From assembly GCA_012551655.1 (NCBI GenBank), contig GCA_012551655.1_3034.1: a stretch of 33,627 nt of DNA; one strand, written 5' to 3'. A program made the translations under genes and the position numbers. This stretch comes from a phage. Positions 29,056 through 32,848 of this stretch are shown piece after piece; position 1 is the stretch's first letter; each line of letters starts with the position of its first letter. Below the pieces are notes generated by a model. It was not told the DNA's origin, did not search any database, and saw only the letters and a list, made by a program, of their open reading frames with translations.

Positions 29056-29739
29056 TTATCGTTTAGTTGGAAGAGATAGAGGATCGCATTCTTCCTCTGA
29101 TGGAGCGTCTTCTAGACCCATAGCGTATCGCAAAGCATACTTCATCATCAGGATGTCTTTCGCACAGTCATGAATAGAATCATGTGCAACGAATCCATCT
29201 AAAGTTCCCTTTGGAAGAGGACATGTGGTCATATCACGAACAAGCAGAAGTGCTTCAATTCTGGTACGAATATCACGCTGATTCCAGAATTTACACGGTT
29301 CTAACTTAAATGTGTCAAGCTCATTCTCAGAAACACCATTAAGACGTTGAATATCACGAATGAGATCGACTAAAATTGGAAAATCAAACGACATTCCACG
29401 GCACCAGCCTTGAGATTTCCAAGGATCGATATTATGCGCATTGATGTAATCATTAAATTTTGCAATACCATCGATAGTGCTTACATCTTCATCGGATGGT
29501 GCAATATTTTTTCGAGCTTCAGGAGATTGATTCTTCCACCATTCGATAGTGCTTTTAGTAAAAAGACGATGTCCTTTTTGGCTTTTTAAATCAAATTTGA
29601 TTTTAATGCCACGTGAAACTAATTCATCAAACGTTTCAACTACTTCTGGGTTAGGGTCAAAAGCAATTACAGCCAAATCAATAACAGCTGCTTTTTCACC
29701 GCTTCCCATTGTTTCAAAATCTATAATAAAATCAAACAT
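29056..29739 (-). CDS. dexA: Exonuclease A DexA (227 aa), DEDDh 3'-5' exonuclease
   Basis: 227 aa as T4 DexA; DFETMG (Exo I) and H-x4-D in FVAHDSIHDCAKD (Exo III) motifs. Confidence 0.85.
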   Translation of the reverse strand: MFDFIIDFETMGSGEKAAVIDLAVIAFDPNPEVVETFDELVSRGIKIKFDLKSQKGHRLFTKSTIEWWKNQSPEARKNIAPSDEDVSTIDGIAKFNDYINAHNIDPWKSQGWCRGMSFDFPILVDLIRDIQRLNGVSENELDTFKLEPCKFWNQRDIRTRIEALLLVRDMTTCPLPKGTLDGFVAHDSIHDCAKDILMMKYALRYAMGLEDAPSEEECDPLSLPTKR

Positions 29740-29981
29740 TAAATTTTCCTCGCTAAATCACGAATTTGACCTACAGTATAGTCTTGAATATAAACTTTAT
29801 TGATAGGCTCATCAATAAATTTTGCCATAGATTCAATGTCTTTTTGTATTTCTTCAAGACTGTATACTATCTTTAAAGCTTTTTCGCGAATAGTAATATT
29901 TTCAGGACCCTGATTTTCTTCAATGACAGCTTTAACATTTGTCATAAGAGATTTAAATTGGTACCAACTTAATTCAATCAT
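29739..29981 (-). CDS. Hypothetical ~80-aa protein, tandem paralog 1
   Basis: Track ORF 29739..29996; second ATG (29981) has GAGG SD and avoids overlap; MIELSWYQFKSLMTNVKAVIEE...LEEIQKDI...YIQDYTVGQI. Confidence 0.5.
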   Translation of the reverse strand: MIELSWYQFKSLMTNVKAVIEENQGPENITIREKALKIVYSLEEIQKDIESMAKFIDEPINKVYIQDYTVGQIRDLARKI

Positions 29982-30219
29982 TAATAATCGCCTCATAAAG
30001 ATAGCTAATTTCGCCTAAAACATAATCATTAATTGTAACAGTTTTCACTTCACCGCAAAAGAATTCTAACGCAATTAAATCTCGTTCAATTTCTTCTAAT
30101 TGAAGCATCAACTTACTAGATTCAATTTTTACAGTTTCACGATTTTTACCATGAGCAATTTCATAAATTTCGCTAACTTTATCCTGAAGAAGATAAAACT
30201 GATCTTTAGTTATTTCCAC
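29974..30219 (-). CDS. Hypothetical ~81-aa protein, tandem paralog 2 (probable GTG start)
   Basis: No ATG near the 5' end; GTG at 30219 preceded by GAGGAAG; VEITKDQFYLLQDKVSEIYE...LEEIERDL...TINDYVLGEI aligns with paralog 1. Confidence 0.45.
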   Translation of the reverse strand: MEITKDQFYLLQDKVSEIYEIAHGKNRETVKIESSKLMLQLEEIERDLIALEFFCGEVKTVTINDYVLGEISYLYEAIIND

Positions 30220-30466
30220 GAATAGCTTCCTCAAATTTAATCAATAATTTACAGACACTTTCATCTAGTGTAATTACCGTATCTGTATTACTGTGATATG
30301 ATTGTTTTTCAATTCGTTTAATTGCTAATATAGTATCACTTATAAGATAAAGCTTATGAAGGAGCTCAGCTCCTGTTACCATAACATTAAGATTATCTTG
30401 CTTATTAGTATGCTTCCTTATACCATCTATTAGACGATTTAAATATTTTGAATTGATGTTAATCAT
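30206..30466 (-). CDS. Hypothetical 86-aa protein (possibly a distant third paralog)
   Basis: ATG with GAGGA SD, 6 nt after the dda stop. Confidence 0.55.
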   Translation of the reverse strand: MININSKYLNRLIDGIRKHTNKQDNLNVMVTGAELLHKLYLISDTILAIKRIEKQSYHSNTDTVITLDESVCKLLIKFEEAIRGNN

Positions 30467-30472
30467 ATATCC

Positions 30473-31792
30473 TCACACATAAAACACATCATAACGACCA
30501 CGAGTGACACCAACATAAAGAAGCTGCTGAGCTAATTCAGCATCTGCATAATGAATACAAGGCGTATAAATGAAAGCACGGTCTACAGACATACCCTGCG
30601 CTTTATGGAATGTTGATGCAGGAAGTGCTTTCACTTTACTAAACTGTGATTTAGCATCCCAAAAATCGCTCCACGGAGCTTTTCCGCCTTTGTTCCAATT
30701 TTTATAAGTTTCTGCTGTTTTACCTAAAAATAGGTTAAACTTATACAATTCTTCATCAGATGAAATTATTTTAATCTTTTCACGATAATATTCATCATCG
30801 CCATAAGTTTCTACTGTTAAATCCCAATGACGAATTAAGTATTCCCCAGAAACACCACGAGCTTTAACAAACGTTGATGTATACTCTGCTTCTATAATAC
30901 GAACTAATTGTCCGTTATTAAAAATAATTTCTGACACAGGCTTTCCATCAATTTTATATGTTTTAATTAATGGTTCCTGCATTACAATAATTTCACCGAC
31001 AATAAAATCTTTATCAGTTTCAAAAATCTTTTTACGAATGATGTTATTTAACTTGTCAACAGATTTATTCGTAAATGCCATTACGCGATTTTCAAACAAA
31101 TCATCTAGTGATTTTACGATTGAAAAATAATTTACCATAAAATCGCGTAAAGCAGTATCACCAGTAAATCCACGTACTCCATGCCCGTCAACAACTTTGT
31201 CATAAATCCACTTACCGTTGCGAACGTCAGTAGCTACATCAATAATAGGAGCATTACTGCGTTTAACTTCAGTGAGTTCACACTGATAAAAATCTTTATG
31301 TGTAAAGAATGGACTGATATAAGCAGTATTTTCTCCTGGGTCAACAGGTCTAATTTGCTTATTATCACCTATTCCAATTATAGTACACCACGGCGGGATA
31401 GTTGAAAGCAGAATTTTAAATAGCTTTCTATCATACATTGACACTTCATCGCAGATTAATACCCTGCATTTAGCTAAATCTGGTACTTCCTTCTGCTCAA
31501 AAAGAACGTTTTCTTCATATGTTACTGGGTTAATTTTAAGAATACTATGAATAGTACTTGCTTCTTTCCCTGATAGTTTTGAAAGAATCTTTTTAGCTGC
31601 ATGAGTAGGAGCTGCTAAAATAATACCAGTTTCACCCGTAGATATTAAAGCTTCAATGATGAATTTGGTAAGAGTAGTCTTACCGGTGCCAGCAGGTCCA
31701 TTAATAGTTACATGATGTTTCTTTTCTTTAATAGCCTTCATAACAATGTTAAAGGCATTTTTCTGGCCTTCGGTCAAATCATCAAATGTCAT
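30473..31792 (-). CDS. dda: Dda DNA helicase (439 aa, SF1)
   Basis: 439 aa as T4 Dda; Walker A GPAGTGKTT; MTFDDLTEGQKNAFNIVMKAIKEKKHHVTINGPAGTGKT... Confidence 0.9.
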   Translation of the reverse strand: MTFDDLTEGQKNAFNIVMKAIKEKKHHVTINGPAGTGKTTLTKFIIEALISTGETGIILAAPTHAAKKILSKLSGKEASTIHSILKINPVTYEENVLFEQKEVPDLAKCRVLICDEVSMYDRKLFKILLSTIPPWCTIIGIGDNKQIRPVDPGENTAYISPFFTHKDFYQCELTEVKRSNAPIIDVATDVRNGKWIYDKVVDGHGVRGFTGDTALRDFMVNYFSIVKSLDDLFENRVMAFTNKSVDKLNNIIRKKIFETDKDFIVGEIIVMQEPLIKTYKIDGKPVSEIIFNNGQLVRIIEAEYTSTFVKARGVSGEYLIRHWDLTVETYGDDEYYREKIKIISSDEELYKFNLFLGKTAETYKNWNKGGKAPWSDFWDAKSQFSKVKALPASTFHKAQGMSVDRAFIYTPCIHYADAELAQQLLYVGVTRGRYDVFYV

Positions 31793-32100
31793 CGTAAATT
31801 CCCTGCAATTGGTATACTAACAATACGCCCAGTATCTAAAATTCGCTGATATAATCTTTGTGTGTCTACGTCAGGCTTAACATGTTTAACTTCTATTTTA
31901 TTAAACCAAAACTTACGTGGAGTCTCAACTAATCTTGGAATTCCCTTACCTAAAGCTAGTCGATACTGTTCTTTAAGAGTAGTAAATACTTTATCAGCAA
32001 TCTTCCATTCAAAAAATACAGCAGGACGATGTTCATCAAGCGGAACTGGCGCCGTAAATCCGTCTTTGTCTCGGTAAACTATCGCATATACATAAACCAT
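31789..32100 (-). CDS. Hypothetical 103-aa protein between srd and dda
   Basis: ATG 1 nt after the srd stop; 3' end overlaps the dda start by 4 nt. Confidence 0.55.
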   Translation of the reverse strand: MVYVYAIVYRDKDGFTAPVPLDEHRPAVFFEWKIADKVFTTLKEQYRLALGKGIPRLVETPRKFWFNKIEVKHVKPDVDTQRLYQRILDTGRIVSIPIAGNLR

Positions 32101-32101
32101 A

Positions 32102-32848
32102 TTATCCTCGGATAAGTTTAAAAATTGAACAATTTAGCGGGTATCCTCTTTTCAGTTTAAGTTTATCAATAAAAGACAAGTTTTGATACCGCTCTACACC
32201 TTGAATAATTTTATCACACATATCATATTGCATTTCTGCTTCTGACAACTTTTTCACAATTTTCCAATCCGAGCCTTTAAGAAGAACGTTCAGTTTAACA
32301 ACTTCAGCGCCTTCTGCTATGCGAGAACCATCAATACGAGCTTTAAGTGCTATAATCCTTAGCTTAATGTCAGAGGTCTGTTTTGATTTAGAAAGCTGAG
32401 AAATGTGTTCAATTCGATTTTCACGTTTTTTCTGTATAGCTTTAATTTGATTATAAGTCTTTTTGATTTTAGCCCATTTCTTTTCATCTAAATTTAGTTT
32501 ATGAACTTTTTTCGCAGATGAACGACCAATTCGCAAAGCAAATAAATCCCGTTTTTCAATTAACTCCTCTAAAGTATAATCAGAACGAAATGTATTATAC
32601 TTTTTCTTTACTGCAATAACATTCCCTTTAATGTATCCAACGTTATTATCAAAACGTTCTAATGATAATTTCTCTCCTTCAATACGATTATCAAAAGGTT
32701 CTCCCGAGTAAGCACAAACTTTTTGATCTAAAATGTTCTTAATGTAATTGAAGTCTAAGTTAAAATCTTTAGAACGTCTTTTTGCAGATGCCTGAGTATG
32801 CTCTAAACGACGTTTAATTTTACGAATTTGGTTATTAGACAGCTTCAT
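32102..32848 (-). CDS. Srd-like protein (248 aa; assignment by size and position)
   Basis: Basic 248-aa ORF upstream of dda with its own early promoter, as for T4 srd; sequence not independently recognised. Confidence 0.5.
   Translation of the reverse strand: MKLSNNQIRKIKRRLEHTQASAKRRSKDFNLDFNYIKNILDQKVCAYSGEPFDNRIEGEKLSLERFDNNVGYIKGNVIAVKKKYNTFRSDYTLEELIEKRDLFALRIGRSSAKKVHKLNLDEKKWAKIKKTYNQIKAIQKKRENRIEHISQLSKSKQTSDIKLRIIALKARIDGSRIAEGAEVVKLNVLLKGSDWKIVKKLSEAEMQYDMCDKIIQGVERYQNLSFIDKLKLKRGYPLNCSIFKLIRG

Follow-up and report, generated by a model that had tools for sequence, protein, structure and literature searches.

The interval between dda and dexA in the phage genome analysed here (GenBank assembly GCA_012551655.1, contig GCA_012551655.1_3034.1; the 33,627-nucleotide stretch is called the window below) is probably best explained, taken as a whole, as a three-gene tandem array of a family specific to T-even phages, represented by Pfam PF26837 and by phrog_1700 and phrog_5263. 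The three ORFs named in a preliminary description of this DNA are all present on the minus strand: ORF A at 29739..29981 (80 aa, ATG start, pI 5.1), ORF B at 29974..30219 (81 aa, GTG start, pI 4.4) and, as that description had it, a third ORF of 86 aa, ORF C, at 30206..30466 (pI 8.8, with no Pfam assignment). They are flanked upstream in the operon by the gene for the helicase Dda (30473..31792, minus strand) and downstream by dexA, encoding exonuclease A (29056..29739, minus strand). We place high confidence in the identity and paralogy of the array members. With two of the genes being T4 dexA.1 and dexA.2 and the third a distant member of the same family, the locus is largely ordinary, and the value of the analysis is mostly annotation clean-up, with a modest novelty in that a gene absent from T4 joins the family.

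Orthology of ORFs A and B with T4 dexA.1 and dexA.2

ORFs A and B are orthologs of the long-known T4 genes dexA.1 and dexA.2 (UniProt Y00G_BPT4 and Y00H_BPT4), and are tandem paralogs of each other. Comparison with T4 records by tblastn showed 94.9% identity of A to DexA.1 and 96.3% identity of B to DexA.2, and A corresponds in size and position to T4p015 in the T4 annotation. The T4 genes (P32285, P39418; NP_049630, NP_049631) resemble A and B in encoding 80 and 81 aa in 243 and 246 bp, in their 8-nt overlap, in the GTG start of dexA.2 and in their location between dexA and dda. The window differs from T4 by allelic differences in A and B and by the extra gene between dexA.2 and dda. The preliminary description had proposed a comparison with a single dda.1-type gene of T4, which is the wrong counterpart: the T4 genes at this location are dexA.1 and dexA.2, while dda.1 lies upstream of dda and corresponds to 31789-32100 in the window. 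It had also raised the possibility that all three genes are standard in T4, which is true of dexA.1 and dexA.2 and not of ORF C, which T4 lacks.

The end-to-end alignment of A and B that had been reported from inspection holds up. BLASTP gave 26/83 identities (31%), 53% positives and one 1-residue gap at an E value of 2e-10, with the quoted motif pairs LEEIQKDI/LEEIERDL and YIQDYTVGQI/TINDYVLGEI present in the alignment. The Smith-Waterman score of 93 compares with 28.5 ± 5.5 in shuffled sequences (z 11.7; 0/2000 reached 93), well above random expectation. The idea that the similarity is compositional, reflecting coiled-coil or helical low complexity instead of common descent, finds an echo in weak coiled-coil-like matches to GCN4 and designed bundles in a PDB sequence search, but is refuted by the shuffle test, which preserves composition, and by the BLASTP score, which survives compositional adjustment, and is further opposed by a non-helical motif common to both proteins, I-x-DY-x-x-G-x-I at strand 2/helix 3.

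Two existing families, Pfam PF26837 and phrog_1700, already record this paralogy. In PHROG searches A matched phrog_1700 at 8e-43 and B at 1.6e-49; the members of this family are dexA.1, dexA.2 and the Dhakavirus gene, and phrog_5263 holds the syntenic gene of Gaprivervirus and Karamvirus. A local Pfam scan gave no match for A, B or C, and membership in PF26837 comes from precomputed annotation, where the domain is recorded on P0001 (100% identical to B), on P0042 (which represents the cluster of A) and on the genes that Dhaka-, Gapriver- and Karamviruses carry in single copy. A scan of the small proteins with NCBIfam found no domain. The family is tiny and confined to phages: an exhaustive search with an A+B profile recovered 10 representatives among 1.84 billion proteins, retrieving neither ORF C nor the Gapriver/Karam clade, and IMG/VR contributed only 5 further loci.

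ORF C as a remote paralog

The relationship of ORF C to its neighbours lies below the reach of pairwise comparison (BLASTP E > 20 against A or B; z of 0.9 and 2.2 against shuffles), and profile and structure methods identify it as a genuine remote paralog. ORF C belongs to phrog_4967 (9e-59) and matches phrog_5263 over its full length at 1.4e-5. Against an HMM built only from the Gapriver/Karam orthologs it scored 20.1 bits (E 4.6e-8, 0/5000 shuffles, full-length), similar to the score of dexA.1. With an HMM restricted to Tequatrovirus and Dhakavirus sequences the score was 5.2 bits, which is not significant, so that the homology rests on the Gapriver/Karam bridge and on predicted structure. 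Alignment of ORF C with the family by hhalign was collinear (P 0.008), at a probability of 4.9% on the database-search scale.

By HMM, tree and structure, the ORF C clade comprises the "DexA.2-like" gene of Gaprivervirus VR7/VR25, the Karamvirus genes of CC31 and ZX13 and CkP1_0015, and Cronus gp012. The single-copy gene of Gapriver- and Karamviruses and Cronus gp012 are dda-proximal, as is ORF C, which shares its orientation with the dda and dexA genes on either side and is translationally coupled. Identity between ORF C and the Gapriver/Karam gene is about 20-24%; in ORF C, unlike in that gene, an insertion of 6 residues separates helix 2 from strand 2, and helix 3 has lost its initial D-Y/F...G motif. 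A second small gene of Karamvirus CkP1 (locus 2634-2861, phrog_18278) gave no sequence evidence of family membership.

An alternative is that ORF C is a small ORF of matching size by coincidence, without relationship to the family, or non-coding spacer DNA, leaving dexA.1 and dexA.2 as the only paralogs. The failed pairwise comparison, the low hhalign probability, the miss by the A+B profile and the lack of a PF26837 record on ORF C in precomputed annotation all point that way. This alternative is already disfavoured, and we regard it as very improbable, in view of the full-length HMM match to a syntenic gene and the phrog_5263 match, together with a dN/dS of 0.16, conservation in 309 genomes, a C-to-B junction built like the B-to-A junction, and the structural agreement presented below.

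Predicted fold

The AF2 model of B (pLDDT 93.5) places its elements at E2-4, H5-24, H28-55, E60-62 and H65-79, and the model of C, computed from its own independent 4-sequence alignment (pLDDT 81.5), has them in the same order, so that both proteins are predicted to form a β1-α1-α2-β2-α3 three-helix bundle of about 80 aa. The same fold may be expected for A, which aligns with B at 31% identity and with no large indels. In a Foldseek search of BFVD, the C model matched the CC31 protein, BECP11 dexA.2 and both Cronus genes with TM scores of 0.71-0.78. Three-helix bundles can arise convergently, a caveat on the homology of ORF C. Two proteins of Aeromonas phage Aeh1 also appeared in the Foldseek search as structural look-alikes of the C model, and the search gave Acinetobacter hits as well. 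Generic antiparallel three-helix bundles, de novo designed bundles and minibinders have no sequence relationship to the phage proteins, which differ from them in an added mini-sheet of two strands (2-4 and 60-62); the likeness carries no functional information.

Gene junctions and expression

The GTG start that the preliminary description had assigned to one of the ORFs is that of ORF B and is well supported, since it is preceded at a distance of 13 nt by a GAGG (30232-30229), the other candidate start, a TTG at 30234, falls inside this Shine-Dalgarno sequence, and GTG is also annotated for dexA.2 in T4 and Sf25. The Shine-Dalgarno sequence of dexA.2 is contained in the 3'-terminal codons of ORF C (...IKFEEAI..., 30220..30240, minus strand), which align in the family HMM with the conserved end of helix 3. 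The GAGG serving dexA.1 (29991..29994, minus strand) lies within the last helix of dexA.2, 13 nt before the dexA.1 ATG, a spacing equal to that at the C-to-B junction. At the two ends of the array, the dda stop codon overlaps the GAGG of ORF C (30474-30471), and the dexA.1 stop overlaps the dexA ATG (TAATG, 29741-29737). In the proposed arrangement, the last helix of each paralog would thus encode the ribosome-binding site of the next gene.

All three genes would be transcribed with dda.1 and dda as one early/middle polycistron with coupled translation. A single transcription start site in T4 drives a transcript from dda.1 through dexA.1 (bioRxiv 10.1101/2024.04.04.588121). The window has the same geometry: a -10-like TAAAAT (32213-32208) would direct initiation at A32201, from which the dda.1 ATG is 101 nt downstream, and a promoter for the operon is therefore probable within srd (32201..32213, minus strand), by analogy with T4. 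A scan of the region for sigma-70 promoters and terminators found sites no more numerous than in shuffled sequence, and an Rfam scan of the whole window found no RNA family. In T4-infected cells, DexA.1 and DexA.2 were both detected by mass spectrometry. Both proteins are soluble in E. coli, and His-tagged DexA.1 co-eluted with a band of about 9 kDa (PMC8076793).

Evolution of the array

All three small ORFs are coding, as supported by dN/dS values of 0.16 for A, 0.13 for B and 0.16 for C; the corresponding values for dexA and dda are 0.011-0.015. Within the T4 genus, the small genes exceed dexA and dda about 10-fold in dN while matching them in dS, and between genera the small proteins are 21-46% identical, where Dda and DexA retain 59-72%. 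No variation occurs within the genus in the C-terminal half of dexA.1. Among Tequatrovirus alleles, of which roughly 500 are available, the differences lie in patches, at 6-45 in A, at 21-38 and 64-81 in B, and at 6-40 and 62-71 in C. The earlier characterization of these genes as fast-evolving is borne out in their dN and variable copy number, but their ω values indicate purifying selection and carry no arms-race signature.

A neighbor-joining tree separated the family into two deep clades (bootstrap 99.7%), on an alignment of about 80 columns in which long-branch effects are possible, and grouped dexA.1 with the single-copy Dhakavirus gene (bootstrap 98%). The clades are old and fixed in position, type I being dda-proximal (ORF C) and type II dexA-proximal (dexA.1/dexA.2), and these positions are conserved in Erwinia phage Cronus. 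ORF C would then be a diverged paralog of much greater age, from the clade that provides the sole copy in Gapriver- and Karamviruses. Copy number ranges from none (RB69) through one (IME08, VR25 and ZX13) and two (T4 and Cronus) to three in the window phage.

About 62% of Tequatrovirus records contain ORF C, which is found in 309 phage records at an identity of at least 88%, with T6, RB68 and AR1 among the carriers. Among the 15 loci examined, apart from RB14 and ime09, the distance from the dda stop to the dexA ATG is either 736 or 504 nt; these two are defective records, with 744 nt and a frameshifted ORF C in RB14 and 735 nt through a 1-nt deletion in ime09. The difference is a 232-bp segment (30241..30472) that, by alignment of the window with T4, is missing from T4, RB32 and others. 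Its boundary is identical in all genomes without ORF C, and its ends share no more than a TGA microhomology (±3 nt). The 21-nt spacer between dda and dexA.2 in T4 is the retained counterpart of window positions 30220..30240, and was probably left behind by a 232-bp deletion; we infer deletion instead of insertion from the retention in T4 of these helix-3 codons. The T4 lineage would accordingly have lost ORF C through this event. This evolutionary frame, with two ancient position-fixed clades, 0-3 copies and T4 as a probable deletion derivative, points to natural phage pairs for comparison, with and without ORF C, and to RB69 with no copy.

Possible roles of the small proteins

Each protein would be a β-α-α-β-α bundle of about 9.5 kDa lacking a catalytic motif. 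From the simple fold and the lack of catalytic features we infer that the proteins are rather likely to be binders and not enzymes. They would most probably act as dispensable, non-enzymatic accessory proteins that bind another protein stoichiometrically in the early/middle phase. The divergent surfaces (pI 4.4, 5.1 and 8.8) suggest that the three differ in their partners or in the variant of a partner they bind, and host proteins are more likely partners than Dda or DexA themselves; a host protein as the partner is nonetheless a tentative assignment, which we put at somewhat below even. Neither homology searches nor published experiments on these proteins supplied a function or a partner, so the preliminary description's proposal of host-interaction factors stands as a suggestion, with no target named by the tools or papers. 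The small proteins, which are abundant and expressed in the early/middle phase, are reasonable, not exceptional, candidates for host-interaction screens.

A more specific version, in which they are arms-race factors (anti-defence proteins or inhibitors for host takeover) whose duplication and loss track the defence repertoires of hosts, is a possibility worth keeping, with the balance tilted against it. It would fit the presence/absence polymorphism of ORF C, which is shuffled among dexA.2 allele types, the tenfold higher dN relative to neighbours, the divergence of the paralogs in charge on a minibinder-like fold, and the possibility that the protein co-eluting with DexA.1 comes from E. coli. 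T4 DexA.2 is also a substrate of CBASS Cap2-cGAS conjugation, being conjugated to cGAS at K5 in infected cells (PMC10097602), where the protein is accordingly accessible, but the conjugation reached many abundant proteins and is for this reason not evidence for a role in defence. Against arms-race factors stand the ω of 0.13-0.16, which indicates no gene-wide positive selection, the invariant C-terminal half of dexA.1, and a literature search that found no phenotype for these genes. The small proteins had no match at E ≤ 1 among PADLOC profiles, which says little about an anti-defence role because those models cover defence and not anti-defence proteins.

Dedicated accessory subunits or regulators that load, inhibit or couple Dda and/or DexA would explain the conserved position and the translational coupling, yet we consider such a role unlikely. 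The family occupies the dda-dexA interval in Tequatro-, Dhaka-, Gapriver-, Karam- and Roskildevirus, the overlap of stop with start codons implies that the genes are co-expressed in roughly stoichiometric amounts, and the small genes have a transcript in common with dda. On the other hand, dda directly adjoins dexA in RB69, which has no copy, copy number elsewhere goes up to three with ORF C polymorphic within one genus, Dda and DexA are nearly invariant in comparison with the small proteins, and dexA does not adjoin dda in Aeromonas phage Aeh1. Purified Dda and DexA are active alone, which also counts against an accessory subunit.

Returning to binders of host proteins, a bolder and rather improbable extension is that the dda-dexA interval is an old, expandable minibinder cassette, with two ancient fixed-position types in 0-3 copies, each neutralising a different host protein. 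Small basic nucleoid-associated proteins or defence proteins are example targets. If this were true, T4 would be a deletion derivative without one activity, and a phenotype in host range or defence would come to light when T4 is compared with T6-like phages that have ORF C.

Corrected annotations

Many records label the small genes "exonuclease" or "dextranase". These labels are wrong, as the proteins are 80-aa helical bundles with no nuclease or glycoside-hydrolase domain or catalytic motif; the names were propagated from the gene symbol "dexA.n". Beyond these labels, the third member, found in T6, RB68, AR1 and some 300 other genomes, can now be annotated with the family. PHROG matches of the Dhakavirus homolog to a "CI-like repressor" (3.7e-4) and an "anti-repressor" (0.13) are too weak and unsupported. 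The feature that the Kha5h and Aplg8 records call a "prophage attachment site (HK022 type)" is irrelevant here, being a motif of 11 bp that lies within dexA.2. A fused dexA.2-dexA.1 protein, suggested by the 160 positions of phrog_1700 and by a 159-aa ORF in ime09, results from a 1-nt deletion; ime09 is the only one of about 470 records to have it, and it is a singleton or an error in sequencing and no Rosetta-stone fusion.

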